DNA of 64,000 nucleotides from NCBI GenBank assembly GCA_022823725.1, contig JAJEHL010000039.1:7632-71631 (forward strand). Direction: 5' to 3'. Below are positions 2,239 to 16,703 of this stretch, in pieces; within the stretch, counting starts at the first letter, position 1, and each line of letters starts with the position of its first letter. The notes beneath the pieces are model-generated. The model was given only the letters and a program-made list of their open reading frames with translations, made no database searches and was not told the origin of the DNA. A program made the position numbers and the translations under genes. The stretch comes from Candidatus Latescibacterota bacterium. Its GTDB lineage: Bacteria; Latescibacterota; UBA2968.

Positions 2239-3795
2239 TTAAAAGTCTGCGCCGAAGTTTTGGACAAAGATGAGGAAATCAGAGAAGGTAACGCGCAGGT
2301 CACCGTCGAGGTCAAAGGTGGGGTCAAAGCCAACGTCGCCTGCGGTTTTGCCAAAGCCCGAGACAAAGGCGAGGAAGTCTGAGAAGCCTATTTCACTGTC
2401 GCCATCAAAGTCTGATGTTGCGGGACCAGAAGCGAGTTCAGATACGGAGAGGGTGTAACCGATTGCTGTGCCAGATGTGGAGGTGATGGCGAGGCTTCGG
2501 GCAATATTGCCCGATGTGTGTATGCGTTTTGTCTGTGAGGCTGGGATGGGAATTGGCGCGGCAAAGGGTTGATTCCCTTCGGCAATGAGTGTGACGAGAA
2601 GGTCGTTGTCACCTGTGGATTGAATTGTGAAGGCGAGGTCGGGTGTTTTGCCCAGACCGAGATAGTCTATGCCCCAGCGCGTGGCGCGTCGCGTGAGATT
2701 GTTGGTCGGGACGGTGAGGATTTCGCGCTTTACCGGGGGCAGGTCAATGGCGCGATAGCCGAGGTCTCCCTCACCGTCGAGGTACATGGCTGCGGCCCAT
2801 TGCCCAAAGAGGTGATCAAAGCGTTCGGGCATGTTGAGCGATTGGAGAATATTGTCGATGCTCGCTATGCTGCTGTCTGGATCTGCGACGAGTTTGCGGA
2901 GTGCGCTGTCGCCATAGCGCTGTGCGAAATACGTCATATATAGATATGTCTGGTCAAAATCAAAAAACTGATCTTCCCAATAGGTGAGGTCTGTATTGGC
3001 CGCGAGCGAGAGAAAATTTTCAGTAGCGGCTGCTGTAGTGTCTTTGTATCCACAGGCGAGTTCGGCGTATTCCGAGCACCCTTCGTCGAGCCATTTGGCT
3101 TCGTCGGAATCGGCTTTCCAGTGGATCAGGTGCTGAAATTCGTGGGCGAGTGTGGCGCGTGCGAGGTTGCTGTCAATGTCAAGGGGACGGGCGTCGATAT
3201 AAATGATTTCGCGCGAGACGGGCGGGGCTTCGTTGTCGGTATCGATATAACCGATAAATGTGATGCCCGTGATTGGACTGTCGAGCACGTCGAGTACGAG
3301 GATGAGTATGCGGGGATCGGCATCGACATCTGGGGGATCGCCAAAGAGGTTGGTGACAGTCTCGTAAATGCCGAGGTCGGGATGACGTGCGGTGGATTGA
3401 TCAAACGCGCGTGCCAGGGATTCAATACCCGCTTGTGTTACGCGCGGGGTGTTCCACATGTCATCTTCTACAAAAATATAACAGTGGTCGCCCACATAGC
3501 GACAGGTTGTTGTGGTGTGGTATTTTCCGCCGCCAACGAGTTGGAAACTGTATGCGGGCAGCGTGAGTGTATCGCCAACGCGGAATGGCGTGGAGAAGGG
3601 AATTTTGGTCGCGGGGCGATAGGGTGTGGTTTGGCGTGGAATCAGGTGGGTTCCGCTTTGGGGGATGGGTTGGGCGTGGACGGAAAACCATCCGCAGAGG
3701 AACGCAGATGAGCACAGATAAATGCAAAAAGATCGCAATCCGGCTGTTATATTCGCGAAGAGGAGATCGCATTTGCGAATTGTTGGCGGAGACAT
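2239..3795 (-). CDS. secreted HExxH zinc metallopeptidase with C-terminal dockerin-like (EF-hand) repeat pair
   Basis: There is an N-terminal signal peptide (LRSFCIYLCSSAFLCGWFSVHAQP) and a LAHEFQHLIHW zincin motif. The C-terminus carries two repeats, DFDGDSEIGFSDFLAFVSGFG and DLDGDLRVTFSDFLIFVQNFG, with a DxDGDxxIxFxDF calcium-binding dockerin type-I-like pattern. Confidence 0.6.
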   Translation of the reverse strand: MSPPTIRKCDLLFANITAGLRSFCIYLCSSAFLCGWFSVHAQPIPQSGTHLIPRQTTPYRPATKIPFSTPFRVGDTLTLPAYSFQLVGGGKYHTTTTCRYVGDHCYIFVEDDMWNTPRVTQAGIESLARAFDQSTARHPDLGIYETVTNLFGDPPDVDADPRILILVLDVLDSPITGITFIGYIDTDNEAPPVSREIIYIDARPLDIDSNLARATLAHEFQHLIHWKADSDEAKWLDEGCSEYAELACGYKDTTAAATENFLSLAANTDLTYWEDQFFDFDQTYLYMTYFAQRYGDSALRKLVADPDSSIASIDNILQSLNMPERFDHLFGQWAAAMYLDGEGDLGYRAIDLPPVKREILTVPTNNLTRRATRWGIDYLGLGKTPDLAFTIQSTGDNDLLVTLIAEGNQPFAAPIPIPASQTKRIHTSGNIARSLAITSTSGTAIGYTLSVSELASGPATSDFDGDSEIGFSDFLAFVSGFGKTAGDVGFDPTFDLDGDLRVTFSDFLIFVQNFGADF

Positions 3796-3797
3796 TG

Positions 3798-4421
3798 TTA
3801 AAATCGGACTGAGAGTCGCACCTGTAAGTCCCCAGAGGTATTGGGGGAAACAGTTGCAATGGGACGGGTTTTGGCGGCGATGTTGGCGGCATTTAACGCG
3901 CTGGCAAAGCGATTGAAGATGAGTGCGCCCACAAAGAGAAAGCTGCGTGTGCGTGCCCAGGTGGCTTTGCTTCGCAGTTCTCGGAAGTGTTCACGGGAAG
4001 CCGGTGAGTCCCACTCCCAAAAGTTTTCGGGTGTTTCTGGTAGTGGGTTGCCCGATGAGCCTTCGACATATATCAATCGGGCGTTGTAGTCGTAGATGCT
4101 GTTGTAACTGGATAGGCGGTCGTAATGGGAGTTGGGTTTTTTGACGTTGGTTGCGCCAGCGCGTGCCGCGGCATAAGCGCGGAAGGTATTTTCTCGCGTG
4201 GTGTTGAGTTTTTGAAATGCAAATAATCCCGTCCAGAACATGCCTTCGGTAAATAGGAAAAATTTCGCAGATTTTCGCCCGCCCGCATATCGCTCGCCCA
4301 GGCCGGGTAAGAGGATCGATAAAAAGGCAGCTTTTTTTGGTGATTTCGCTTCTTGTGCAAATGCGGCAGACGGAGCGAGCAAACAGGCACAGACGATCAG
4401 GATTTGGGATGGTGTTTTCAT
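3798..4421 (-). CDS. secreted hypothetical protein (paralog A of tandem pair; conserved LLPGLGE-YAG motif)
   Basis: Signal peptide ILIVCACLLAPSAAFAQ. Shares AAFLSILLPGLGERYAGG / AFFLSLLVPGLGELYAGA, a FRAYA..R.. block and a C-terminal ...R.SV(E)L..RF with the neighbouring gene. Sits in the operon 3 nt from the upstream gene. Confidence 0.5.
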   Translation of the reverse strand: MKTPSQILIVCACLLAPSAAFAQEAKSPKKAAFLSILLPGLGERYAGGRKSAKFFLFTEGMFWTGLFAFQKLNTTRENTFRAYAAARAGATNVKKPNSHYDRLSSYNSIYDYNARLIYVEGSSGNPLPETPENFWEWDSPASREHFRELRSKATWARTRSFLFVGALIFNRFASALNAANIAAKTRPIATVSPNTSGDLQVRLSVRF

Positions 4422-4425
4422 GATG

Positions 4426-5097
4426 CTAAAATCTCGTTTTCAATTCAACCATGGACCGTCCATGACTATCGACAGGCGTGATGTCGATCCACAAGCTCGG
4501 ACCGGTCTTTTTTTGGCGTGTGCGCGTATAGGCCGAGGCGTGTATGGCACTGGCAATGTGGTTGAGTACTGCCAGACCTGTGACAACAGACGCGCGTTTG
4601 AGGTATTTGTTGCTGTCGTTGCGACGGGTTTCATAGTCCAGTCTGCGTGACGATGGCACGTTCTTATTGTCGGTGGAAAAGTCAGCCGTCACATCGTCCC
4701 AGCCATAGACAAATTGATGATATTTGCCAATGAGTTCGTAATACTGTTGCGTGTCGTTGCTTTTGGAAGGCAGGTCGTGGGTTTCGTAATACGGCTCGGG
4801 CTGAGTTTTGTTCCATTCCCGCCAGGCGGTGTACTGTGCTTCCTGCCAATGCCGATCGGCATATGCCCGAAATTCTTCCTTAATGTCATTGCCTTTGCTC
4901 CGCCATGAAACATAAGCGGTCCATGTGAGGGCTTCTGCACCTATAAATCCGACTGCGCGCATTTTGGCTCCGGCATATAATTCACCCAGACCCGGTACAA
5001 GTAGTGAGAGAAAGAAGGCCGTTTTAGGCGATTTTTCCGCAGCGACCTGTCCGCACATGAGCGCGAAAGCAAGCGTGCAGAGTGTGAATGTTCGCAT
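4426..5097 (-). CDS. secreted hypothetical protein (paralog B of tandem pair)
   Basis: Signal peptide TLCTLAFALMCGQVAAE. Same conserved blocks as 3798-4421 and the same C-terminal ...ELKTRF end, giving an aromatic terminus like outer-membrane proteins. Confidence 0.5.
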   Translation of the reverse strand: MRTFTLCTLAFALMCGQVAAEKSPKTAFFLSLLVPGLGELYAGAKMRAVGFIGAEALTWTAYVSWRSKGNDIKEEFRAYADRHWQEAQYTAWREWNKTQPEPYYETHDLPSKSNDTQQYYELIGKYHQFVYGWDDVTADFSTDNKNVPSSRRLDYETRRNDSNKYLKRASVVTGLAVLNHIASAIHASAYTRTRQKKTGPSLWIDITPVDSHGRSMVELKTRF

Positions 5098-5111: not shown

Positions 5112-8100
5112 CTAAAAGTTGACTTTCCCAACATCCGTAACAAATCCAAATAATAATGTAAAATATACTTTAAAACCACTTTGTTCAAGTGGATCGCCAG
5201 CCCGTTGCAAAGGCACATGGTCGAAACCGTAGGCCACGTCGAGGCTGGCACGTGTGGGAAAAAGATAAAACGAGGTGGCGTCGTAGCGCAATTGCGTGCC
5301 CAGTTCGCGTTTCCATCCGCGTTTGAGTATCGCGTCGTCGGGTGTGCCATCCCAGGCGCGGGCGATTCCGGCAAAGAACGCGCCGTAGAGTTGATCGGAG
5401 TAGATTGGGCCTGTTTGTCGATCGATGCGCGACCATAAGGGAAAGCGATAAGCCGACCGCAACATCAGGGCGCGGCGACCTTCCAGGCTATAAAACGTAT
5501 ATCCTTTCATACCGGGCAAGCCCCCGAGAAAGAAGTCAAAGGTGTCGTCAACTTCGCTGTCGATCACGCCGCCAAAAAAGCGGAAACTCAGGGCACTGCG
5601 GCCGGGAGCGACCGGGATAAATTCGTTCCAGTCGAGGGAGAGTTGGTTGTAGAAATAGCGGTCGTAGGTTTCGACGATTAGCGAGGAATTTTCCTCAAAG
5701 CCGCTGATGAACCAGTTGAAATAGCGATCGTATCGCAGCGCGAGATGGCGTCCGGATCGGGGATTGATTTCCGAGTCTCGGGATCGACCTATGGCATTGA
5801 GGCGATAGGTGAGGGCGAGGTCAAATCCGTTGAGGGTGGTGGCGGCCACTATGTCGCGATTGAGGCCGTTGAATCGCGCTTGATCCAGGACTGCACCCGT
5901 GCGATTGTACACGAGGCGCGCGTCGATCGTACCGCCGCGTCTCAGGGTGTATTTGCCGCCTATTTCAATGCCCGTGAGCGCAAAGGTGCGGTTGTAGATG
6001 CGAAAGTCTTCGTCACGGCTGATTACATCTTCTTCAACGTGGCGCGATAGACGATAGGCTTCGAGAAAAAAGGTGGGGCGTTTTTTGCGGTATTCGTAAA
6101 GCGCGTACAGGTCCATATCCAGATCGTGGGCAAGCAGACCACTGATAAAAAAGGTTTGTTTTCGCAAGACGTCGTCGGATCCCGCTATGGCGCCGAGTTT
6201 GATTTTGCCGCTGTCAATTGCCAGACGCGGAAGTATGGTGGTGGATGAAAATTCGTTTTTGTATGGGCGGCTCGATATCGCGGGTTTGGGCGGTGTGGGG
6301 ACGAAGGGTTCGACTCGAAAAATGCTGGTCTCTACGGACTCTTTTAATGGCTGAGAGATAACGCGAATTTCGTAGGCGTTTTTGCCGTAGTGGCTATATG
6401 CGATGCGATGGCCATCTGGATGCACCTGGGGTTGAAATGCGCCGCCGTACACGCGGGTGAGGCGGTCTATTGCGCCGTTGGATAGATTGGCGCGATAGAG
6501 GTTGAAGATGCCGTCGTGGTCAGAGGCAAATACGAGGGATGAGCCATCGGGTGTCCAGCACGGATCGCGGTCGGTTTCGCGGGAGGCGATGCGCACTGTG
6601 TAGTCACCGCCTGTTGCGGGAATGGTGGCGATGTCCCGCGAGGTGCCGCTTTGGTAGAGCGAGAATGCGATTTGCGATCCATCGGGAGACCAACGCGGAG
6701 TGGCGACCTGTGAGCCATCGTCGAAAGATGTGAGATATCGAATAGTGTCTGCCGCGATGTCGAGGATACAAAGATTGGTGCTGCCCCCGCCGTTTTTGAT
6801 AAACGCTATTTGCGCTCCGTCTGGCGAATAGGCCGGGTGGATGCCGCGCAAGCCAGTGCTGAGGCGCGTTTCGCCCGGGAAAGTGGCTTGTGCGAGACCA
6901 ATTTTAGTTTTGACATTTTGAAATAGGCTCGATTTGACGGCTTTGGTTTCCATGGCGTAGAGGTCCCATTGCCGCGCACCGTATTTATTGGGCTGGCTGT
7001 GGCGCGCGTAGAGGAGTTGCTCGCCATCAGTTGACCAGTCAAAGGCCGTGACCGCGCTGGGAGCGGCGATTTCTACGCTGCTGTCGGCGAGGGTATAGAC
7101 CATCAAACTCGTGCGCCCATAATCGCTACCTTTATTGGAGAGGTAGGCGAGTTTTGTTCCATCGGGAGACCAGCGAGGGTGTAGATTGAGGTAGCCGTCT
7201 TCGCGGATGAGGTCGCCCTGTGCGGGACTGATTTCGATCTGTGCGATTTGATCCGCATAGCGTTTTTTGAGCGATGCGACCCAGCGCTCGTGCAATTCGC
7301 TTGCAGAGATGCCCAGGGTGGCGCGGATTGCGCCGCCAAAATCCGTGCGCCACCAGACTTTCATTTGCCGATACAATTCGGGGAGTTTGTCGCGCCCAAA
7401 AGTATCGACAATAAAGAGGGAGAGCGAGTAGCCGTGGTCGTACACTTTTTCAAATCCGAGACCTGTTTTGGCGCCAAAGACGGACATTTCGTCGCGGGTG
7501 AGTAAGCTTCCATTGCGCGTGGCCTGGCGCAAAACCATATCGCGGTGTGAGTCCCAGCGGTCGTGTTGTGCGCCCGGTGCCATGTATTGCGCCGTGCCTT
7601 CGGCAAACCAGGGCGGGATGATGGTGGCGGGAATGGCATAAGCGGCAAGGACATTGGGATAGCCAGCGAGGATGTCGTCGCGTTTGCCTTCGCCCTGATA
7701 TTGCAGGTAGTTGAGGAAGATGGCGGGGATGCGCCGCGAGGATTTTCGAGCGATTTGGAGCGAGATGATGTGCGTCAATTCGTGCGTTATCACGTTTGGA
7801 AGCCAATCTGTACTGCCGCGCAGTGCAAAGTCGAGGTTGGAGACCCAGATTTCGATGGTGTTGTGGTAATAATACGCTGCGCCATTGGCATAGTCTTCGG
7901 TGTCTTTGAGAATGATGCGGACTTTGCTATCGGGTTCAAAATTGTAAAAGGACGCGATCGGGCTGTACGCGTCTTCGGCGATTTGGGCAGCACGCGGAGC
8001 CAGCTTTTCCAGTCCCTGATGGTAATAGACTTTGAAGTGCTCGGTTTCAATGACGCGCCAGTTCAGTTCGGGGTGATTGGCGTCAAATTGCGCGAGGGCC

Positions 8101-8153
8101 TGTGTACTCAGGGTCAGGAGGATGAGGATCGTTTGTGTGAATTTGTAAGACAT
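5112..8153 (-). CDS. outer-membrane Omp85/BamA-type beta-barrel protein with N-terminal HExxH peptidase-like domain and TolB-like PD40 beta-propeller (no recognisable POTRA)
   Basis: Signal peptide (ILILLTLSTQALAQ), followed by the motif VITHELTHIIS. At least five PD40-type repeats are present (PRWSPDGTKLAYLS, PAYSPDGAQIAFIK, PRWSPDGSQIAFSL, PCWTPDGSSLVFAS, PQVHPDGHRIAYSH). The C-terminal roughly 350 aa carry Omp85 motifs (FLGGLPGMKGYTFYSLEGRRALMLRSAYRFPL) and the protein ends ...GKVNF with a terminal Phe. Confidence 0.65.
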   Translation of the reverse strand: MSYKFTQTILILLTLSTQALAQFDANHPELNWRVIETEHFKVYYHQGLEKLAPRAAQIAEDAYSPIASFYNFEPDSKVRIILKDTEDYANGAAYYYHNTIEIWVSNLDFALRGSTDWLPNVITHELTHIISLQIARKSSRRIPAIFLNYLQYQGEGKRDDILAGYPNVLAAYAIPATIIPPWFAEGTAQYMAPGAQHDRWDSHRDMVLRQATRNGSLLTRDEMSVFGAKTGLGFEKVYDHGYSLSLFIVDTFGRDKLPELYRQMKVWWRTDFGGAIRATLGISASELHERWVASLKKRYADQIAQIEISPAQGDLIREDGYLNLHPRWSPDGTKLAYLSNKGSDYGRTSLMVYTLADSSVEIAAPSAVTAFDWSTDGEQLLYARHSQPNKYGARQWDLYAMETKAVKSSLFQNVKTKIGLAQATFPGETRLSTGLRGIHPAYSPDGAQIAFIKNGGGSTNLCILDIAADTIRYLTSFDDGSQVATPRWSPDGSQIAFSLYQSGTSRDIATIPATGGDYTVRIASRETDRDPCWTPDGSSLVFASDHDGIFNLYRANLSNGAIDRLTRVYGGAFQPQVHPDGHRIAYSHYGKNAYEIRVISQPLKESVETSIFRVEPFVPTPPKPAISSRPYKNEFSSTTILPRLAIDSGKIKLGAIAGSDDVLRKQTFFISGLLAHDLDMDLYALYEYRKKRPTFFLEAYRLSRHVEEDVISRDEDFRIYNRTFALTGIEIGGKYTLRRGGTIDARLVYNRTGAVLDQARFNGLNRDIVAATTLNGFDLALTYRLNAIGRSRDSEINPRSGRHLALRYDRYFNWFISGFEENSSLIVETYDRYFYNQLSLDWNEFIPVAPGRSALSFRFFGGVIDSEVDDTFDFFLGGLPGMKGYTFYSLEGRRALMLRSAYRFPLWSRIDRQTGPIYSDQLYGAFFAGIARAWDGTPDDAILKRGWKRELGTQLRYDATSFYLFPTRASLDVAYGFDHVPLQRAGDPLEQSGFKVYFTLLFGFVTDVGKVNF

Positions 8154-8165
8154 AGTGTTAATGGT

Positions 8166-11156
8166 TTACTTAATTACTGCGGCTTTGATAAATCGCACCT
8201 CTGTGCGCGTGCTATTGCTGGCTTGCAGGCGACAGATATAGAGGCCGCTGGCATAATCGGATATATCCCAGGCGATTTCGTTGTCAGTATTGGGCATGGG
8301 ATTGTTGTGAGTGAGGTCGGCGACTCTTTCACCGAGGGGATTGTAAATGGTCATAGTGATTTCGGCGGGTTCTAACAAAAAAAAGCGAATGCGCGCCCTG
8401 TCGCCATTGCGGATCGGGTTGGGGTAGAGATATGCTCGTGCCGCAGGTAAAAGCGAGGTTTCTGTTGGGGTTGCGATTTCGCCCGGCTGTTGGAGCAATT
8501 TGCCCGTGTTGCCCGGTCCGCCGCCGAGTTGTCCCCAGATAATTTTGTTACCGGTATAAGATGGGTCAATTGTTTCCAGGTGGAAGAGTTGCGCGCTGCC
8601 GTCGGCGGTATAGATAATGAGTTCCAGGGTGCCGTCGTTGTCAAGGTCGTCGATAAGTGGTGATGAGAGAATGGGGCCGGGTACTAACAGAGGGAAGCCC
8701 GGTAGGGAATGTCCTTCGGCGGTCAGACCGTAGAGGAAGCCACCGCGTGTACCCGCGAAAATATCGGGGGTTGTGTCGTTATTGATGTCGGCGAGAATAG
8801 GCGGTGCTTCAATGGGGCCGGCGTCGTCTTTTATCGGGAGGGCGAGTGCGCCTTCGGTTTGCAAGATGGCGTTGAAGCGATAAAGCCAGAGTTTGCCGTT
8901 GCCGCCAAAGAGGACTTCGACAAATCCGTCGCGATCGACGTCGGCTACAACAGGGGGTGAATGCGCGCCGCCGGGTACGGGATCGCTTGTGAAGGCGAGG
9001 CCGTTGGCGTCGAGGATGGAGAGGATACCGTCTGTTGAGATGACTGCAATGTCGTCATTGCCATCGCGGTCGAGGTCGCCTATTGCCGGGCCGCCGATGA
9101 TGGGAGACGCGAATGTGGCGAGTGGATTGGATTGGTTGGTTCTGTGAATGAGGTGGAGCTGAGCACTGCTGGTAATGGCGATGAGTTCATTGTCCGAGTC
9201 GCCGTCGATATTTCCCACGGCGAGCGATTGGATGGCATCGCTCAGGGCGATGCTGCCCGTGGTTTCAGATAGAAGATTACCCCATTCGATTTTTCCATCG
9301 CTCCTTCCCCAGATATCGACATATGTTGTGGGGAATTTTGCAATGACGGGTGTTGAAGAGAAAAATGGATTGATATCGATGGTTTCGTGGACTGTACCAC
9401 TGGGACGCCAGTGCGTTCGGGTTGTTTCTCCGCGATGATAGATGAATCCGGCTATTTCCGGGTCGCCAATTGCAGGGGTTGTCGCAAATGACTCGTCCAG
9501 GCTGTGCTGTGTGCCCGCGATTTTCCACGCGCCAGCACTGTGAAGGATTTCTTTGCTTCCATCTCCGTCGAGGTCGATGACGCGGGGCGACTCCCGTGTG
9601 GGATTCAAGTTTGTAATCGGCCAGTTATCTATCCGATTGGCAAAACGGATAGCAACTGACATTACTTCGCCGTGTGGGCTGAGTACTTCGATAGTTATGC
9701 CGCTTTCATAGCCTGAGTTGCTGCGGGTGTTCGGCGAGGTGTTGGGATCAAATACGGCGTTGTTGCCCACGTAAAAGGCGTCTTCTGGCGCGCCTTCGAT
9801 ACTGCTTAATGAGATGATACCAGCTTGAATGATGCGGCTGGCCGATACATTGCCGATGTCTTGAAGGCCATCGGCTTCCTCGAGGGCAATGCCGCGGCGA
9901 TATTGGGCGGGTGCAATTTTGTAATCGGGATGGCTATTGATGTGTTTTTCTGCATTGCTGGCCCGAATAATCGCATCGTCAATGTGGTAGATGAGAATGC
10001 CCGAGCCGGGTATGAATGCGTCGTAGTCATCTGTGGAAAGCCAGACATTATGAGGGGTAGAAAATTCGATTTGCGGGATGCGATTTTCAATATTGAGGCG
10101 CGAGTAGCGATTTTCAATTAAAAAATATTCTGTGGCGCTGATAGGTACGCGAATAGCCTGCGGAAGATCGGACGCGCTACCGGATGCAGCGATTTCTACG
10201 GTGTCGTTGTGGGTGATCACGAGTGGTTCGAGCCAGCCGAGTTGCATGCGGCACCAGGCGATCATGCGACTGGGCAAGAATCCAATCAAATTTGTGCTGG
10301 CGGGGTCGTTTCTGAGGGGTTGGAGTCCCAGGCGCGCGGCGTCAATTTGATTGTTGGCACCCGTGTCCATCAAACTCCAGTCGCCAATTGCAGGCAGATC
10401 GTTTTCAAAGTCCGAAAGACCGGGCAAGCCGAGTTGCGAGGCAAAAAATCGAGCGATCGTACCGTTGAGACCACCCTGACCATTTGTGCTGATGGCTTCG
10501 GGCAATAGCATGCCCGATGTGACCTGAAAAGCACCGTTGTTGACGGAAATCGCGCCGTCGGCGAGTTCGATGAGGTCGCGTTCAAAAATAAAGGCCGAGG
10601 GTATATCATTGAGTTTTTGACCTGCTTCTCCGCCGAGTCCCGCATGAAATACTGCAAAGGCGCGGTATTTTGAGAAATCTATATTTGCGCCATCTGTGTT
10701 ATCCGCAGCGCGAATACCATCCCGAAAAAGCCGCGTGACGCGCTCATTTATTTCGCGCCTTGTGCGCCCATTGCCGTATTCGATCAAGGGGGTGTCGAGG
10801 ACGTAACTCGCGGTGGAGTCTTGTGGATAGACATCGTATTCGATGGTTAGTTGACCTCGGGATATGTCGCGGTAATAATTGGACAGTGCCTGCAGGTGGG
10901 CTTCAAAATAGGCGCGGTCATGGGGGGGGGCATCAAAGGGGTAGATGCGATCGGGACTTTCGACTGTACTGAGATTGAACGTGCCGTTTCCACTGGTGGT
11001 TTCGTTGTCGGGATCTTCGGGGGGAAAAGAGACGCGCACGGCTAAGACGCGATAGGTTGGGTCAGCTATAATAGGCTGTACAAAAAGGGCTATAAGACAC
11101 AGGAGGATTCCGCATCTGGACAGAAGGGTCATAGTTAAGCGTGTATTCGGTTTCAT
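8166..11156 (-). CDS. large secreted M6 (immune-inhibitor-A)-like domain protein with FG-GAP repeats and T9SS C-terminal sorting domain
   Basis: Signal peptide is present. The segment ...TIARFFASQLGLPGLSDFENDLPAIGDWSLMDTG resembles the M6 HEYGHNLGLPDEY...WSLM region, but with the His/Glu positions substituted. There are at least six FG-GAP-like Ca-binding repeats (IDLDGDGSKEIL, GNIDGDSDNELIAI, GDLDRDGNDDIAVI, ADVDRDGFVEVLF, ADINNDTTPDIFAG, DDLDNDGTLELIIY). The C-terminus LYPNPIRNGDRARIRFFL...TMTIYNPLGERVADL...GLYICRLQA...VRFIKAAVIK fits the T9SS CTD (Por secretion tail). Confidence 0.7.
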   Translation of the reverse strand: MKPNTRLTMTLLSRCGILLCLIALFVQPIIADPTYRVLAVRVSFPPEDPDNETTSGNGTFNLSTVESPDRIYPFDAPPHDRAYFEAHLQALSNYYRDISRGQLTIEYDVYPQDSTASYVLDTPLIEYGNGRTRREINERVTRLFRDGIRAADNTDGANIDFSKYRAFAVFHAGLGGEAGQKLNDIPSAFIFERDLIELADGAISVNNGAFQVTSGMLLPEAISTNGQGGLNGTIARFFASQLGLPGLSDFENDLPAIGDWSLMDTGANNQIDAARLGLQPLRNDPASTNLIGFLPSRMIAWCRMQLGWLEPLVITHNDTVEIAASGSASDLPQAIRVPISATEYFLIENRYSRLNIENRIPQIEFSTPHNVWLSTDDYDAFIPGSGILIYHIDDAIIRASNAEKHINSHPDYKIAPAQYRRGIALEEADGLQDIGNVSASRIIQAGIISLSSIEGAPEDAFYVGNNAVFDPNTSPNTRSNSGYESGITIEVLSPHGEVMSVAIRFANRIDNWPITNLNPTRESPRVIDLDGDGSKEILHSAGAWKIAGTQHSLDESFATTPAIGDPEIAGFIYHRGETTRTHWRPSGTVHETIDINPFFSSTPVIAKFPTTYVDIWGRSDGKIEWGNLLSETTGSIALSDAIQSLAVGNIDGDSDNELIAITSSAQLHLIHRTNQSNPLATFASPIIGGPAIGDLDRDGNDDIAVISTDGILSILDANGLAFTSDPVPGGAHSPPVVADVDRDGFVEVLFGGNGKLWLYRFNAILQTEGALALPIKDDAGPIEAPPILADINNDTTPDIFAGTRGGFLYGLTAEGHSLPGFPLLVPGPILSSPLIDDLDNDGTLELIIYTADGSAQLFHLETIDPSYTGNKIIWGQLGGGPGNTGKLLQQPGEIATPTETSLLPAARAYLYPNPIRNGDRARIRFFLLEPAEITMTIYNPLGERVADLTHNNPMPNTDNEIAWDISDYASGLYICRLQASNSTRTEVRFIKAAVIK

Positions 11157-11165
11157 AATGCGAGA

Positions 11166-12512
11166 TCAGTGAGAATAGCTGATGCGATAGATCAGGCCGG
11201 CCTGGTCGTCCGATACGAGCAGGGAACCGTCGGGCATGACGAGTACATCGACTGGCCTGCCCCAGTTCGATTCGCCCTGCAGCCAGCCTTTTGCGAATGG
11301 CTCATAGCTGACTGCCTCGTTGCCATTCAGGCGCACCAGGGTGACGCGGTAGCCGATCTTGCTGCTGCGATTCCAGGATCCGTGTTCGGCGATAAAGATC
11401 TGATTGCGGTACTCCTCTGGAAACATGTCGCCAGTGTAGAAGCGCATTCCCAGAGCCGCTACGTGTGGGCCGAGTTCCTGGACCGGCGCGACGAACTCGC
11501 CGCAGCTACGCTGATCGCCGAATACAGGATCGGCGATGTTGGTGCCGTGGCAGTAGGGATAGCCGAAGTGCTGTCCATTGACGGTTATTCTGTTCAGTTC
11601 GTCCGGTGGCACATCGTCGCCCATTCTGTCTCTTCCGTTGTCCGTGAACCACAGTTCGCCCGTTTCCGGATGCCAATCGAAACCGACGGTGTTGCGAATG
11701 CCTCGCGCTATGATGCCGAAGTTGCCATTGGTGTCCAATCTTCCGATTGAGGCGTACGGATCGCCGCGATTGCAGATGTTGCACGGCGCGCCGACGGGTA
11801 CGTACAGCAAACCGTCGGGGCCAAAGCGGATGAACTTCCAGCCGTGCGATCGATTCGTGGGAAAAGTGTCGTTGACGATTTCCGGCTGTGGCGGGTTGTC
11901 GAGTTGTGCTTCGATGTTGCGATAGCGCAGGATGCGGTTGATTTCGGCTACGTACAGGTCGCCGTTCTTGAAGGCGACGCCGTTGGGGTTGTTCATGCCG
12001 CGGGCGAGGATGATGACTCGTTCTGCTTTGTGGTCGCCATCTTCGTCGCGTAGTGCGTACACGCGGCCACTGGGGCGAGTGCCGACAAAGAGGGTGCCGT
12101 GTGGACTGAGGCTCATTGAGCGAGCACCCGTTATCCCTTCGGCGTATATGTGAATGTGGAATCCTTCAGGTAGTTCAATTCGCGTCAGGCGTGGATCGCT
12201 GGGTGGTTGTGGTGCCGTTGATGATGCCGCAAAGCTATTGACAAATAGCAGAAAATCGTCAAATGCAATCTCGCCATTCCCATCCAGGTCGTATTTCGCA
12301 TCGTACCGCTCTTGGCCGGCTTGAGATCCGAATGCGGTGACAAATAGCAAAAAGTCGGGAAAATCGACAACACCATTGCCATTAAAGTCCGAAGAAGGGG
12401 GACTGCTATTTTGAGAAAAAAGAGGCGAAAGCAAGAGTGTGAAGTTCAGCAAACTGGCGGTGCCGAGCGCGAGAAGGCGAGGTCTGGCATTGTATCTCAA
12501 GAGATTTAGCAT
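11166..12512 (-). CDS. PQQ-dependent soluble aldose/sorbosone dehydrogenase (GSDH family) with N-terminal dockerin-like repeat pair
   Basis: A signal peptide is followed by DFNGNGVVDFPDFLLFVTAFG and DLDGNGEIAFDDFLLFVNSFAA (dockerin/EF-hand pattern). The body matches GSDH/YliI-type beta-propeller dehydrogenases (...RNTVGFDWHPETGELWFTDNGRDRMGDDVPPDELNRITVNGQHFGYPYCHG...). Confidence 0.7.
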   Translation of the reverse strand: MLNLLRYNARPRLLALGTASLLNFTLLLSPLFSQNSSPPSSDFNGNGVVDFPDFLLFVTAFGSQAGQERYDAKYDLDGNGEIAFDDFLLFVNSFAASSTAPQPPSDPRLTRIELPEGFHIHIYAEGITGARSMSLSPHGTLFVGTRPSGRVYALRDEDGDHKAERVIILARGMNNPNGVAFKNGDLYVAEINRILRYRNIEAQLDNPPQPEIVNDTFPTNRSHGWKFIRFGPDGLLYVPVGAPCNICNRGDPYASIGRLDTNGNFGIIARGIRNTVGFDWHPETGELWFTDNGRDRMGDDVPPDELNRITVNGQHFGYPYCHGTNIADPVFGDQRSCGEFVAPVQELGPHVAALGMRFYTGDMFPEEYRNQIFIAEHGSWNRSSKIGYRVTLVRLNGNEAVSYEPFAKGWLQGESNWGRPVDVLVMPDGSLLVSDDQAGLIYRISYSH

Positions 12513-12569: not shown

Positions 12570-13634
12570 TTAAAATATAAATCCACCCGTAAAGCGGAAT
12601 GTATTGCTGGCAGGCGTATCTTCCGTCGGCACAAAATACGAGATATCGAAATTTGCCCAGTTGTATTTTAAACCCAGCCCAAAGGTGGGAAAGTTGCGTT
12701 TGCCATCCTTGTCGTAGGAATAGCCACTGCGCAGGGCAAAAGACGAATCTTCAGATAGCTGGTACATCCATTCGGCACCTACGCGGTAATCTATATCGTC
12801 AAATTCCGTAAAACCGTTTCCGCCCGGATTGGGCTTCCAGCCAAAGGTGTCGTCGTGCCAGCCAGAAATAAAGGAAAAGAAATTATCAGAGGCGAGAGGT
12901 TTGTAAATATCTGTGGTGAGCATCAGGGAAGACGAGTTGTTTTTCATCACTTTGTATGCGATGCCAAAAACGAAATTTTGCGGCAGCGGATCTGCCTGGT
13001 CGGCATCGATAAAGGTCATGTTTGGGCCAACATTGCGCAATACGCTACCGAAGCTAAGCCGATCTGTGGCGGCCCACATGAGACCTATGTCTCCGGCAAA
13101 AGAAGTCGCAGTGCCTTTGCCTTGCTCAATGCCCGCACCTGCGTCGGAGAGGTTTTCATGGATAAACTTAACCGTGATGCCCAGTGCCAGATTTTTGAAG
13201 AGATGCGTGCCATAAGATACACCCAGGGCCATGCCGTAGCTTTTAAATGTACCTAAAAGATTTCCCTCTTCATCGGTGCGTTGTTGTTCGCCCAAAGAAC
13301 TATAAATGAGGCTATATCCCAAATTGCCAATGCCACTAAAGGGATGTGTATAAGCACCGAATGACGAAAAGATGTCGCCGGCCAGTCGGGGAACAGGTTT
13401 GTACAGAGTGGTGCTGAGACTGTGAATTTGTAATGAAGCCAGTGCGGCGGGGTTGTAGTACGTGGCATTTGCGTCATTGGCAATAGCGACATAAGCATTG
13501 CCCATGCCCGCTGCACGGGCCGATGGCGCGAACAACAGAAAATTGGCTGCGGCATGGCTTTCGGGCGTTGCATAAACTGGCGTGCTGAGCAGGCCAATGC
13601 CAAGCGCAAATAGGGTGAGAAGACGGTATTTCAT
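12570..13634 (-). CDS. FadL-like outer-membrane beta-barrel, PorV/PorQ-family candidate (T9SS-associated)
   Basis: Signal peptide LFALGIGLLSTPVYA. The N-terminal hatch motif SARAAGMGNAYVAIANDANATYYNPAALA is typical of PorV/PorQ/FadL-like proteins. It is beta-strand-rich throughout, ends ...FTGGFIF with a terminal Phe, and is the first gene of the operon containing a T9SS cargo. Confidence 0.5.
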   Translation of the reverse strand: MKYRLLTLFALGIGLLSTPVYATPESHAAANFLLFAPSARAAGMGNAYVAIANDANATYYNPAALASLQIHSLSTTLYKPVPRLAGDIFSSFGAYTHPFSGIGNLGYSLIYSSLGEQQRTDEEGNLLGTFKSYGMALGVSYGTHLFKNLALGITVKFIHENLSDAGAGIEQGKGTATSFAGDIGLMWAATDRLSFGSVLRNVGPNMTFIDADQADPLPQNFVFGIAYKVMKNNSSSLMLTTDIYKPLASDNFFSFISGWHDDTFGWKPNPGGNGFTEFDDIDYRVGAEWMYQLSEDSSFALRSGYSYDKDGKRNFPTFGLGLKYNWANFDISYFVPTEDTPASNTFRFTGGFIF

Positions 13635-14346: not shown

Positions 14347-15807
14347 ATGCGGCAAAATATCTGGATCGCGTTCGTGTTTGGGGTTTTGGCCTGTGGTGGA
14401 GGAGATGAGGCGACAAAATTAGATGTAACGGCGTTGGATGGCGGAAGAATAAGCTGGCGGACATGGAGCCAAAGGGATTCCGCCCGAATCCTCGGGCGCC
14501 CCATCTTGTTGTTTTTGTACACGCAGCGGTCGGTTTGGTGCCGAGATCTCGTAGTGCGGTGTTTTGAAGATCCAGAAATTGCGCGAGCGATTACCCGTTA
14601 CACTTTGCCGATATGGATTGATGCCGATCAACGGCCCGATTTGTTTGAGCGTTTTGGTCTGGGCGGGGTCCCATCGCTCGCTTTTTTGACACCTGATGGA
14701 CAGTGGATTACAGGCAGCACCTATCTCGACCCCGGGGATATGACGGATCTGTTGCGGTGGGTGCAAATTTTGTACGACAATCCCGATAGACTCGTCAGGC
14801 TCGAGGTGCAGCGGGCAGAATTGATGCGGCGAGCAGAACGCGATAAAAAGAAAAATCCGCGCCCTCGTATCAATCCCAGTGCAGCGCTTTTGCACCGGGT
14901 GCGCGATAGTTTGAAATCGGTGGTAAAAAGCGGTTTTGATCCAGGTCCCGAAGGTCTTCTCGCGCTTGCAGAAGCGGGTATTGACTCGCCTTTGATCAAT
15001 TTTGTACACAGCGCAGGGCGCGATACAGATGGCGTTTATGTGTTGGGGGTATTAACACATCGCGGGCCTGTGATTGATGCAGAAAAACACATGGCGGTCA
15101 ATGCTCAATTATTGCGGGCATTTGCACAGGTAAATTTGTCCCGCGATCTGGCCGATGCAATGCTCGAACAATTTGCCGTATCTGGCGATGGTTTGTTGTG
15201 TGCCGGGCTGACGGGTTTTCGAGATCAGGCGGGAAATATATTGCGGGATGCAGAGGTTTATTCGGGCTGGAATGCACTGGCAGTTTCGGGTTTATGCGCG
15301 GCGTTTCTCGAAACTCGAGAGGCGCGTTTTTTAGATGCTGGGCGGCAAATTTTTGAAGCGATTAAGACGCATTTTGTGCAGGAAGATAGCCTGTTTGCCC
15401 ACGCGCGATCTCTGAGTACACCCCATTTTTTGATAGATCAGGTTTTAATCATTCGCGCTGCTCTCGATTTGTTTGAGGTGCAAGAACTCGAGGCCGATTT
15501 GTTATTTGCGCGAGCGCATGCAGATCGGGTTATGACAGCTTTTGCCGATTCTTCGGGCGCTTTGAGAGACCGAACGCCGGAGGCAGAGGTCTCGAACTCA
15601 TCCGCTATTGATCGGTGGTTGCCTTCGGGAAATGGTGTGGCGGCGCAGGTTTTAATACGGCTTTTTGCGCATACGAAAATGCCGCGCTATCGAGATCGCG
15701 CAGAGATAATTTTGACAGTTCTGGTTGGACCCAATATAGATCGTATCGGATATGCTGGCGCGCTGAATCGCGCATTGGCATTATTTGTTCGAGAAAGCGA
15801 AAACTAA
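14347..15807 (+). CDS. thioredoxin-domain lipoprotein, DUF255/YyaL-like (thioredoxin fold + six-hairpin glycosidase-like domain)
   Basis: Lipobox VFGVLACGG. The N-terminal thioredoxin-like region (...LLFLYTQRSVWCRDL...IWIDADQRPDLFERFGLGGVPSLAFLTPDG...) is followed by an alpha-helical domain typical of DUF255 proteins. Confidence 0.5.
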   Translation: MRQNIWIAFVFGVLACGGGDEATKLDVTALDGGRISWRTWSQRDSARILGRPILLFLYTQRSVWCRDLVVRCFEDPEIARAITRYTLPIWIDADQRPDLFERFGLGGVPSLAFLTPDGQWITGSTYLDPGDMTDLLRWVQILYDNPDRLVRLEVQRAELMRRAERDKKKNPRPRINPSAALLHRVRDSLKSVVKSGFDPGPEGLLALAEAGIDSPLINFVHSAGRDTDGVYVLGVLTHRGPVIDAEKHMAVNAQLLRAFAQVNLSRDLADAMLEQFAVSGDGLLCAGLTGFRDQAGNILRDAEVYSGWNALAVSGLCAAFLETREARFLDAGRQIFEAIKTHFVQEDSLFAHARSLSTPHFLIDQVLIIRAALDLFEVQELEADLLFARAHADRVMTAFADSSGALRDRTPEAEVSNSSAIDRWLPSGNGVAAQVLIRLFAHTKMPRYRDRAEIILTVLVGPNIDRIGYAGALNRALALFVRESEN

Positions 15808-16703
15808 TGGCTAATAATCGGTTGCTCATTGTCGGTGCATCGGGCTTTTTGGGGCACGCACTTTGCGATGTATCCGGTGGTGACTGGGAGCGAGTACCTG
15901 TGTCGCGTAGTGGCTCAAGGGGTCATCTTGTCGTAGATTTAACACGGCCCGATTTGGTGCACGAGGTGGTAGCGCAGGTGCGCCCTCAGTGGGTGATCAA
16001 TTCAGCAGCTATGACAAGCGTTGATGGATGTGAGCGAAATCCCGCGCTTGCGCGTGCGATACACGTTGATGGAACGCACAATTTGGTTCAAGCGTGTGAA
16101 CGGGTTGGATGCGGTCTGGTGAACTTATCGACCAATTATGTGTTTGATGGAAAGAAAGGGCCTTTTGCCGAGGCTGATGAAGCACATCCAGTGAATGTGT
16201 ATGGACAGACCAAGTTAGAAAGCGAAGTTGTTGTGTTGAATGCACTTTGTCCCGGCATTGTAGTGCGAACGGCGGTGTTGTACGGTTTTCGCCCGTCTTG
16301 TCGGCCCAATTTTGTGACCTGGGCCATTTCATCGCTGGCGGGGCGCGAGGCGATTCGCGTGGTGACAGACGAGTGGACAAATCCGACTTTTGTCGATGAA
16401 CTCGCCGCATTTATATTAAAATTGTGCCGCACGGACTTTCGCGGTGTGGTGCATTTTGGTGGGGCGGATTTTTTGACGCGCTTTGAAATGGTCGAGCGGA
16501 TTTGTACGGTGATGGGGCTTGACCTTTCGCTGGTGTCTGCCGCAACATCTGCAGAATTTGGACGGGCCGCACAGCGGCCGCCGCGAGCCGGGTTGACAAC
16601 CGCACTTGCCAGGACATTATGTGATATTGCGCCTGCCTCTTTTGAACATAACTTGAGGCAATTAAAGAACGTCTTTCACAGGATTGTTAATACCCATGTC
16701 TGA
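15807..16703 (+). CDS. rmlD: dTDP-4-dehydrorhamnose reductase (RmlD-like NAD(P)-dependent epimerase/reductase)
   Basis: MANNRLLIVGASGFLGHAL... matches the Rossmann GxxGxxG, and ...VINSAAMTSVDGCERNPALARAIHVDGTHNLV...NYVFDGKKGPFAEADEAHPVNVYGQTKLESE matches the RmlD substrate-binding domain. The ATG at 15807 overlaps the upstream TAA. Confidence 0.7.
   Translation: MANNRLLIVGASGFLGHALCDVSGGDWERVPVSRSGSRGHLVVDLTRPDLVHEVVAQVRPQWVINSAAMTSVDGCERNPALARAIHVDGTHNLVQACERVGCGLVNLSTNYVFDGKKGPFAEADEAHPVNVYGQTKLESEVVVLNALCPGIVVRTAVLYGFRPSCRPNFVTWAISSLAGREAIRVVTDEWTNPTFVDELAAFILKLCRTDFRGVVHFGGADFLTRFEMVERICTVMGLDLSLVSAATSAEFGRAAQRPPRAGLTTALARTLCDIAPASFEHNLRQLKNVFHRIVNTHV

Follow-up and report, generated by a model that had tools for sequence, protein, structure and literature searches.

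The gene at positions 8166..11156 (minus strand) of the window, meaning the whole 64,000-nucleotide stretch of Latescibacterota DNA analysed here, is the Latescibacterota representative of an FCB-superphylum gene that lies directly after porV and often after canonical porU. Its product is a homolog of the M6 (InhA-like) peptidases without both zinc-binding histidines, the catalytic glutamate, and the aspartate that serves as third ligand. As this homology and the lost site occur together with an FG-GAP propeller and a type-A C-terminal sorting domain (CTD) of the T9SS, the protein is regarded as a secreted pseudo-protease. The reading to which we incline, with moderate confidence, is that of a binding partner, exported by the T9SS and non-catalytic, within a surface module linked to porU/porV; the proteolysis there would be supplied by the neighbouring MA/PD40 protein.

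Domain architecture of the M6-like protein

The reading frame, which was checked, runs from an ATG start to a TAA stop over 996 aa and encodes a signal peptide, the dead M6-like body, an FG-GAP propeller, and the T9SS CTD; this gene and all the other features given below lie on the minus strand. The probable Sec signal peptide occupies aa 1-31 (11064..11156; MKPNTRLTMTLLSRCGILLCLIALFVQPIIA, followed by DP) and is read from the sequence alone; the N-terminus is also conserved among the homologs. The InhA-like (M6/thuringilysin) body covers aa about 35-520 (9597..11054) and is assigned from NF052323, TIGR03296, a profile match to 4YU5, and AF2 modelling with Foldseek. The FG-GAP beta-propeller (aa about 521-905; 8442..9596) carries 5-6 DxDxDG Ca-loop-like motifs, and the type-A CTD (aa 910-996; 8169..8429) closes the protein.

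The first-pass annotation had described FG-GAP repeats and a T9SS sorting domain, and both descriptions hold. Pfam FG-GAP_3 and FG-GAP exceed their cut-offs, five strict DxDxDG-type loops are present (aa 528, 694, 739, 790, and 837) along with an additional loop, NIDGDSDNE, near aa 646, and AF2 folds the C-terminal part into a propeller, with 29 strands predicted and a pLDDT of 88.8. The sorting domain scores 35.8 bits with TIGR04183 (cut-off 23) and 30.8 bits with PF18962 (cut-off 27), and AF2 models it as a beta-sandwich. From the signal peptide and the CTD, the protein is predicted to be exported as a type-A cargo of the T9SS.

M6 relationship and loss of the zinc site

The M6 likeness that had been noticed by eye is borne out by several comparisons. 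TIGR03296, the M6 domain model, matches the protein at E=4.8e-16 with 59.5 bits, below its cut-off of 110.8. The proposed comparison with Pfam PF05547 gave a divided result, as the window protein has no match at E<=1 while the intact syntenic orthologs score above the gathering score. A search of the PDB with the full protein sequence returned nothing relevant, and a search with the family profile returned InhA2 (4YU5) as the sole match, at E=3.6e-4 and spanning the active-site stretch. Structure prediction, also suggested at the outset, agrees: for aa 1-525, InhA2 is the sole match of the AF2 model (4YU5/4YU6; E=7e-13, prob 1.0; next E=0.012; Foldseek), with low model confidence precisely at aa 248-269.

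The segment on which the M6 likeness was originally based, TIARFFASQLGLPGLSDFENDLPAIGDWSLMDTG, corresponds to aa 233-266 (nt 10359-10460). In zinc peptidases with the motif HExxHxxGxxD, the two His and the Asp are ligands of the metal and the Glu is catalytic (PMC12237041). The counterpart of HExxHxxGxxDxY in the window protein is RFFASQLGLPGLS (aa 236-248; 10413..10451, from the alignments). In register with InhA2 and the intact orthologs, the first His is replaced by R236, the Glu by F237, the second His by S240, the ligand Asp by G246, and the Tyr by S248. The motif thus reads R-F-F-A-S-Q-L-G-L-P-G, with the Gly (Gly243) alone kept, and the Met-turn-like WSLM at aa 260-263 (10368..10379) is retained. 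The HExxH columns are R236-F237-F238-A239-S240; the earlier string ARFFAS gave six letters for five positions and was off by one, although its substance, the loss of His, Glu, and His, was right.

No HExxH occurs elsewhere in the window protein, nor in any of its 120 best homologs, and the pseudo-protease call of the first-pass annotation is therefore upheld. Its question of whether orthologs retain the motif has a twofold answer, since HEFGHxLGLPDLYD is kept in some of the syntenic orthologs. Alternative catalytic residues were also sought. No clade-specific acidic or His residue is found near the dead site, and the conserved His, Asp, and Glu of the domain are all common to the intact-site orthologs, which marks them as framework residues.

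Gene cluster and synteny across the FCB phyla

The cluster in the window begins with a PorV/PorQ-family outer-membrane protein (12570..13634; NF033709, 231.6 bits against a cut-off of 90, and PF19572). A protein with a dockerin-like module and a GSDH-type propeller (11166..12512) comes next, encoded by a lineage-specific gene that has been inserted ahead of the M6-like one, directly after porV. Downstream of the latter lies the MA/PD40 partner (5112..8153), a 1013-aa protein with a Peptidase_MA-like domain, an intact HELTH (aa 124), and a TolB-like PD40 propeller. Its C-terminal region ends in KVNF, as in outer-membrane proteins, and its composition together with the terminal Phe suggests a barrel. 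Next come two small DUF5683-like paralogs, A (4426..5097; 223 aa, with a signal peptide and ending in RF) and B (3798..4421; 207 aa). The last gene (2239..3795) encodes a putative HExxH protein of 518 aa with HEFQH, weak MXAN_6640/Peptidase_MA_2 similarity, and a C-terminal dockerin-like pair. The intergenic gaps, in the same order, are 57, 9, 12, 14, 4, and 2 bp, and this spacing indicates that the genes are probably co-transcribed; a scan for sigma-70 promoters and intrinsic terminators gave counts about equal to those of shuffled sequences. No PorU gene was found within the window.

The position of the gene is conserved across the FCB phyla. A porV-family gene lies at most 1.6 kb upstream in 68 of 69 loci, a PorU-like gene precedes porV in 25 of 59, and the MA/PD40 gene directly follows the M6-like gene in 50 of 61 (by one count). 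The usual order is porU, porV, M6-like, MA/PD40 with HExxH, two DUF5683-like genes, and a further HExxH protein. The upstream genes are canonical, as shown by PorU scores of 935 and 709 bits with NF033707 (cut-off 420) and by the PorV of locus L083, which passes its equivalog model. A PorU2/PorV2 neighbourhood, suggested by the adjacent accessions NF052323-NF052325, was considered and set aside on these grounds. The family extends to at least 577 species-level genomes and several thousand homologs, most of which are labelled 'hypothetical' or 'FG-GAP repeat protein'.

Syntenic orthologs with the intact HEFGHxLGLPDLYD, among them those of L061, L057, L040, and L029, come from MAGs that bear the labels Zixibacteria, Eisenbacteria, Aegiribacteria, and Ignavibacteria, these taxon labels being unreliable. 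The state of the M6 site goes along with the presence of MA/PD40 downstream, scored within +/-10 kb of each locus: the site is lost with the partner present in 53 loci, intact with the partner absent in 10, lost with the partner absent in one (L060, the sole dead-site locus without an adjacent MA gene), and intact with the partner present in none. The association (Fisher p=7e-11) is uncorrected for phylogeny, and the 64 scorable loci are phylogenetically non-independent, with an intact set of perhaps 4-5 lineages. The MA protein keeps its HExxH in 52 of the 53. Synteny and this pattern of presence and absence together suggest a partnership between the M6-like and MA/PD40 proteins. The porU/porV context, the intact orthologs, and the adjacent partner with its intact HExxH had all escaped the first-pass annotation.

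Conservation of the dead cleft

The M6-like gene is under purifying selection. Its dN/dS is about 0.2 for the whole gene, falls to 0.12 within the M6-like domain, and is at most 0.08 for aa 226-266, a stretch that ranks first of 445 for conservation. No part of the domain is better conserved than this dead cleft, and the propeller evolves fastest (dN/dS 0.23-0.34). In the Latescibacterota clade, the first His is replaced by an invariant basic residue (R/K236), and the substitutions at the site vary widely among the dead clades (R/K-F, L-M, S-N, H-Q). The Latescibacterota clade groups with the intact-site orthologs at an NJ bootstrap of 66% versus 6%, so the loss of the site in this phylum may be independent of, and parallel to, the others. 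If so, the coupling with the MA gene would have arisen more than once.

Relation to known families

Pseudo-proteases of this kind are already known, as NCBI curates NF052323, 'T9SS-dependent M6-like inactivated metalloprotease', an NCBIfam equivalog of 1043 positions with a cut-off of 600 bits; the pseudo-protease call is therefore not new. The window protein matches it at E=3.6e-108 with 362.9 bits, under the cut-off, which is passed by the syntenic proteins of L083 (827), L028 (658), and L021 (618 bits), with L060, L062, and L036 just under. It shares with NF052323 the length, the M6-like body without HExxH, the FG-GAP propeller, the type-A CTD, and the slot after porV, and the three passing loci have the same order as the window of porV, M6-like, MA/PD40, and two DUF5683-like genes. 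However, the window clade has R/K-F-F-[AG]-[SHN]...G at the site, whereas mostly hydrophobic L/I/M or A/S stand there in NF052323, and the gene tree suggests that the window protein belongs to a separate branch.

The InhA/thuringilysins (MEROPS M6; for example Bacillus InhA2, 4YU5/4YU6) share the fold of the catalytic domain and the motifs HAG.G.E, LGLP, the WSLM Met-turn, EYFL.ENR, and G.L.WH.D. The window protein differs in having other residues at every zinc ligand, at the catalytic Glu, and at the Tyr, in carrying an FG-GAP propeller followed by a T9SS CTD where InhA has C-terminal domains of its own, and in its origin from a Gram-negative FCB lineage; the identity over the structural alignment is about 12-13%. 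The intact syntenic M6 orthologs share the slot after porU-porV, the combination of M6, FG-GAP, and CTD, and the DUF5683-like genes that follow, but they keep HEFGHxLGLPDLYD, pass the Pfam Peptidase_M6 cut-off, and have no MA/PD40 gene within +/-10 kb. Several of these loci also have a propeller-type insert of 450-600 aa in PorV. A literature search for the M6-like family, its T9SS context, 'PorV2', or a pseudoprotease with the T9SS returned nothing relevant.

Proposed role and alternative explanations

In the reading that we favour, the T9SS would carry the M6-like protein to the cell surface, where it would work without catalysis. The preserved cleft and the propeller would bind a ligand or partner, making the protein a binding or scaffold subunit of the porU/porV-linked surface module. 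Proteolysis itself would be the work of the MA-type HExxH/TolB-propeller protein (5112-8153), which is probably co-transcribed and probably located in the outer membrane. In lineages without this MA/PD40 partner, the M6 protein would itself retain the HEFGH...D site. A broader and more tentative proposal is that the M6-like, MA/PD40, and paired DUF5683 proteins form a new accessory module of PorU-PorV in FCB phyla beyond the studied Bacteroidia. The proteolytic role would then have passed from M6 to the MA-type protein at least twice independently, with M6 kept as an indispensable non-catalytic subunit. Such a module may act as a substrate-binding or PorZ-like adaptor, or in clearing or recycling cleaved CTDs.

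The protein could instead be a T9SS cargo that acts on its own as an adhesin or ligand-binder of the surface, untied to MA/PD40 or to the T9SS machinery, which occupies the slot after porV only for co-expression. A type-A CTD is the mark of a cargo, FG-GAP propellers are commonly binding modules (the fold search with the C-terminal model returned generic propellers only), and the fast evolution of the propeller is expected of an environment-facing surface. Yet the recurrence of the slot after porV and the near-perfect reciprocity with MA/PD40 are hard to explain in this way, and it is the dead cleft, not the propeller, that is best conserved. We consider this explanation rather unlikely.

A less probable role is that of a PorZ-like subunit of the T9SS attachment complex, in which a propeller with an uncleaved CTD docks on a PorV/PorQ-type barrel and aids the processing or anchoring of cargo by PorU in those FCB phyla that lie beyond the well-studied Bacteroidia. 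PorZ is built of two propellers and a CTD, and the architecture of the M6-like protein recalls it in joining a beta-propeller to a T9SS CTD. The place directly after canonical porU-porV and the component-like distribution over so many species would also suit such a subunit, the association with PorU/PorV being genomic only here. The PorZ of Porphyromonas gingivalis, whose function, alone of the two, is known experimentally, is reported to be a component of the attachment complex and to bring A-LPS to the sortase PorU (PMC8545088). However, PorZ has no protease-like domain, it is absent from the 50 best PDB hits to the C-terminal model, the NCBIfam scan of the window protein gave no PorZ match, and no sequence similarity to PorZ was seen; the resemblance was set aside with the generic propellers of the fold search. 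Moreover, that the intact orthologs are real proteases speaks for an enzyme of processing more than for a carrier of LPS.

The first-pass annotation had proposed a candidate dockerin-binding scaffold in this operon; such a role, taken as that of a cohesin-like scaffold for the dockerin modules of neighbouring proteins, now seems very improbable. The neighbours do carry dockerin-like EF-hand pairs, N-terminal in 11166-12512 and C-terminal in 2239-3795. In the window's subclade, the last gene has exchanged a T9SS CTD for the dockerin-like tail (judged from the C-terminal sequences themselves; outside this subclade, its orthologs carry a T9SS-CTD-like Ig domain at their C-terminus), and some binding partner therefore probably exists. 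However, a Pfam scan at E<=1 finds neither a cohesin nor another dockerin-binding domain in the window protein, and the structure models contain only the InhA-like body, the propeller, and the CTD sandwich. Neither FG-GAP propellers nor M6 folds are known to bind dockerins. The dockerin/GSDH gene is restricted to three loci, that of the window and those of L004 and L005, the two most closely related to the window, and the tail is confined to a single Latescibacterota subclade, whereas the M6-like protein spans phyla with a constant architecture. Least probable of all is a hydrolase with a non-canonical catalytic constellation, as might be read from the constraint on the cleft and the invariant R/K236, since the conserved His, Asp, and Glu belong to the framework, the vicinity of the site holds no acidic or His residue peculiar to a clade, and the diverse substitutions among the dead clades fit a new common mechanism poorly.

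Significance

What is new here is the porV-linked slot, the intact syntenic orthologs, the loss of the site that tracks MA/PD40, the possible independent loss, and the conserved dead cleft. To our knowledge, T9SS biology beyond the Bacteroidia is almost unexplored. A fixed place beside porU/porV across most FCB phyla is expected of an accessory of the secretion system and not of random cargo. The presence of live and dead versions in one slot, the dead ones with an intact HExxH neighbour, offers a clean natural experiment on the retention of a pseudoenzyme once catalysis has passed to a partner. The module model predicts that the proteins form a complex, that cargo processing would depend on the pair, and that an intact M6 would rescue the deletion of dead M6 and MA. 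The homologs now called 'hypothetical' or 'FG-GAP repeat protein' could be given a better annotation.

Architecture and active-site register

The M6-like protein is predicted from its sequence to be an M6 homolog that is catalytically dead and secreted through a T9SS, and it is strongly constrained. A single minus-strand ORF (8166-11156) with an ATG start and a TAA stop encodes its 996 aa; the N-terminus, MKPNTRLTMTLLSRCGILLCLIALFVQPIIA followed by DP, reads as a putative Sec signal peptide. The Pfam scan matched FG-GAP_3 and FG-GAP repeats, and five strict DxDxDG-type loops (aa 528, 694, 739, 790 and 837) and a sixth, imperfect one near aa 646 agree with the six or more repeats counted in the first-pass annotation. 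The T9SS C-terminal sorting domain read there is likewise supported by TIGR04183 (T9SS type-A sorting domain, NCBIfam; 35.8 bits, cut-off 23) and Por_Secre_tail (Pfam; 30.8 bits, cut-off 27). The AlphaFold model of aa 506-996 (pLDDT 88.8, pTM 0.89) comprises 29 strands and then a terminal beta-sandwich, and resembles generic multi-bladed propellers such as designed propellers, BBSome subunits, YxaL, BamB and integrin alpha; PorZ is absent from its top 50 structure matches.

For the N-terminal domain, Pfam Peptidase_M6 gives no match at E<=1, the NCBIfam M6 domain TIGR03296 matches under its cut-off (E=4.8e-16), and NF052323, 'T9SS-dependent M6-like inactivated metalloprotease', matches at E=3.6e-108 with 362.9 bits (equivalog cut-off 600). 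The M6 likeness proposed by eye is borne out by Bacillus anthracis immune inhibitor A2 (InhA2; 4YU5/4YU6), the sole solved structure found by a profile of 17 aligned N-terminal domains (E=3.6e-4), with an alignment spanning the active-site stretch. InhA2 is also the only structure matched by the AlphaFold model of aa 1-525 (pLDDT 71.8, pTM 0.78; E=7e-13, probability 1.0; next match E=0.012).

Metzincins follow the rule HExxHxxG/NxxH/D, in which zinc is bound by the two His, with Glu serving as catalytic base and, in thuringilysins, Asp as the third ligand (PMC12237041). Direct alignment of an intact syntenic ortholog (homologous locus L061) with InhA2 sets CHEFGHQLGLPDLYD...WDIM against AHAFGHDLGLPDEYD...WSLM, HAFGH being the motif as it stands in the deposited InhA2 chain, and the window protein reads ARFFASQLGLPGLSD...WSLM in a joint alignment of 80 orthologs. 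From this rule and these alignments, the two His and the Glu of the zinc motif therefore correspond to R236, S240 and F237, the Asp ligand to G246, and the Tyr of D-x-Y, invariant across 17 intact orthologs, to S248; the Gly is kept as G243 and the Met-turn-like WSLM is retained. The segment quoted at first pass lies at aa 233-266 of the translated ORF (nt 10359-10460, minus strand); its reading of 'ARFFAS' as HExxH was one residue out of register, and the loss of His/Glu/His stands. An HExxH elsewhere, which would speak against that loss, occurs nowhere in the window protein, nor in the best 120 of its 929 homologs.

Constraint on the dead site

The homologs (929 at E<=1e-5, the top 120 each about 1000 aa long) are nearly invariant over aa 226-266, and these 41 residues have the top conservation in the N-terminal domain (rank 1 of 445 windows). 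Against two close relatives, L004 and L005, dN/dS is 0.19-0.20 for the whole gene, 0.12 for the M6-like domain, <=0.08 for the former active site (aa 226-266), 0.11-0.12 for the CTD and 0.23-0.34 for the propeller. The gene is not decaying. H79, H171, D184, E220, E343, E348, H391, D393, E427, D429 and the other conserved His/Asp/Glu of this domain are just as conserved in intact-site orthologs, and so are framework residues rather than a substitute catalytic set.

The gene cluster and its conservation

The M6-like gene is embedded in a porU/porV-linked cluster kept across phyla. In the window, the cluster is tightly packed on the minus strand (gaps of 57, 9, 12, 14, 4 and 2 bp) and runs from a PorV/PorQ-family gene (12570-13634; NF033709, 231.6 bits) through a dockerin-like plus GSDH-type propeller gene (11166-12512) and the M6-like gene to the MA/PD40 gene (5112-8153). 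The latter encodes 1013 aa with a Peptidase_MA_2 domain, an intact HELTH, a TolB-like PD40 propeller (PDB TolB matches, E about 1e-19) and an OMP-like C-terminus with terminal Phe. Two paralogous DUF5683-like genes follow (4426-5097 and 3798-4421; ~210-220 aa, signal peptides, OMP-like -RF ends), homologs of which come after the M6-like/MA genes in most loci, across phyla. The product of the last gene (2239-3795) is 518 aa long, contains HEFQH and bears at its C-terminus a dockerin-like pair similar to the module of the 11166-12512 protein (phmmer E about 1e-16). Upstream of porV, a divergent pair (14347-16703, plus strand) of DUF255/thioredoxin-like and rmlD-like (dTDP-4-dehydrorhamnose reductase) genes is shared with a related locus (L003:5444-7726), so this flank is conserved in the window's lineage. 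Plus-strand GC skew is strongly positive (about +0.1 to +0.3) over nearly all of 1-64000 irrespective of gene strand, falling to about 0 at 40-44 kb only, an unusually strong strand asymmetry.

The cluster order is repeated in the loci of three distant homologs (36-52% identity), two of which have a Peptidase_C25 gene (1250-1275 aa) ahead of porV. A scan of species-representative genomes found a relative in at least 577, and the best 80 loci were compared; their MAG labels are Latescibacterota, KSB1, Zixibacteria, Marinimicrobia, Ignavibacteria, Calditrichia, Eisenbacteria, Aegiribacteria, LCP-89 and Bacteroidota. Of the 69 loci with sufficient flank, 68 have a porV-family gene <=1.6 kb upstream on the same strand; porV is itself preceded by a PorU-like gene in 25 of 59, and the MA/PD40 gene directly follows the M6-like gene in 50 of 61. 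PorU2/PorV2, whose models stand beside NF052323 by accession, were rejected since the upstream genes are canonical: the PorU sortases score 935 and 709 bits with NF033707 (cut-off 420), and the PorV of L083 passes the PorV equivalog.

Reciprocity with the MA/PD40 gene

The state of the M6 site, dead or live, matches whether or not an intact HExxH protein is encoded next to it. Whether orthologs retain HExxH was raised at first pass; 17 loci keep HE[FS]xHxLGLPDLYD at the equivalent syntenic position, and their labels are Zixibacteria, Eisenbacteria, Aegiribacteria, Ignavibacteria, Bacteroidota and one Omnitrophota, with no Latescibacterota among them. Of four intact orthologs scanned, three exceed the Pfam Peptidase_M6 cut-off and every one matches FG-GAP, the T9SS CTD or both. 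Dead motifs are highly varied (R/K-F-F, L-M-F, S-N-I, A-S-L). Two loci (L025:241-3564 and L027:9614-12889) read H-Q-F-G-H...S, with both His kept, Glu replaced by Gln and Asp by Ser, a possible intermediate state of inactivation; the MA/PD40 gene is already present at L027.

Among loci having enough downstream sequence, the site is lost with the MA/PD40 gene next to it in 53, intact with that gene absent in 10, lost with it absent in one (L060:9863-13012) and intact with it present in none (Fisher's exact p=7e-11, which overstates the independence of loci because shared ancestry is uncorrected). HExxH is kept in 52 of the 53 MA/PD40 proteins; the exception (L067:12988-16190) looks fragmented, its gene being split across three ORFs in which no HExxH was found, suggesting a pseudogene or an assembly error. 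A neighbor-joining tree built from the N-terminal domain places the Latescibacterota clade with intact-site clades, apart from the large dead clade. With active-site columns removed, this nesting recurs in 66/100 bootstraps, and the single-loss arrangement, with all intact sequences in one clan, in 6/100. This gives moderate support to two or more losses of the zinc site, each accompanied by the MA/PD40 gene.

Eight loci with intact M6 and no MA gene have a porV ORF of 770-980 aa (L029:7330-9657, L032:6915-9632, L033:3544-6126, L041:709-3282, L056:7094-9835, L057:7051-9750, L068:3027-5564 and L073:1083-4031), with a 450-600 aa insert after the first ~70 PorV residues. Reg_prop (propeller) repeats occur in the insert of two of three scanned, and the insert was not seen in intact-site loci of Aegiribacteria and Eisenbacteria. 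This form of PorV, with a propeller inserted, seems not to have been described before.

Relation to known proteins and possible role

T9SS-dependent inactivated M6-like proteins are already curated by NCBI. Against the NF052323 cut-off of 600 bits, orthologs score 827 (L083), 658 (L028), 618 (L021), 545-595 (L060, L062, L036) and 383 (L052), and intact orthologs 237-250. The window protein, at 363, differs from the equivalog in falling below the cut-off, and may represent a parallel inactivation. Some family members are labelled 'M6 family metalloprotease-like protein' by JGI; public sources still call most of the homologs 'hypothetical', 'FG-GAP/VCBS repeat' or 'T9SS type A sorting domain' proteins. 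The searchable literature yielded nothing on the family, its porU/porV linkage or the MA/PD40 reciprocity.

The dockerin-binding scaffold suggested at first pass is not supported: the Pfam scan shows no cohesin in the window protein, the glucose/sorbosone-dehydrogenase-type plus dockerin-like gene separates porV from the M6-like gene at three loci only (the window, L004 and L005), and just one Latescibacterota subclade has a dockerin-like tail on the last gene. When that gene (2239-3795, minus strand) was compared with its orthologs in L001-L019, L055, L061 and L079, the window's subclade had a DLDGD...F.DF[LI]IF..NFG pair at the C-terminus and sister clades a T9SS-CTD/FlgD_ig-like strand in the same place, as though one sorting or anchoring module had been exchanged for another at a fixed position. 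The M6-like protein would instead serve at the cell surface as a binding or scaffold partner that lacks catalytic activity, with the MA/PD40 protein supplying proteolysis. Candidate roles for such a module include cargo maturation, clearance of cleaved CTDs and a PorZ-like adaptor function.
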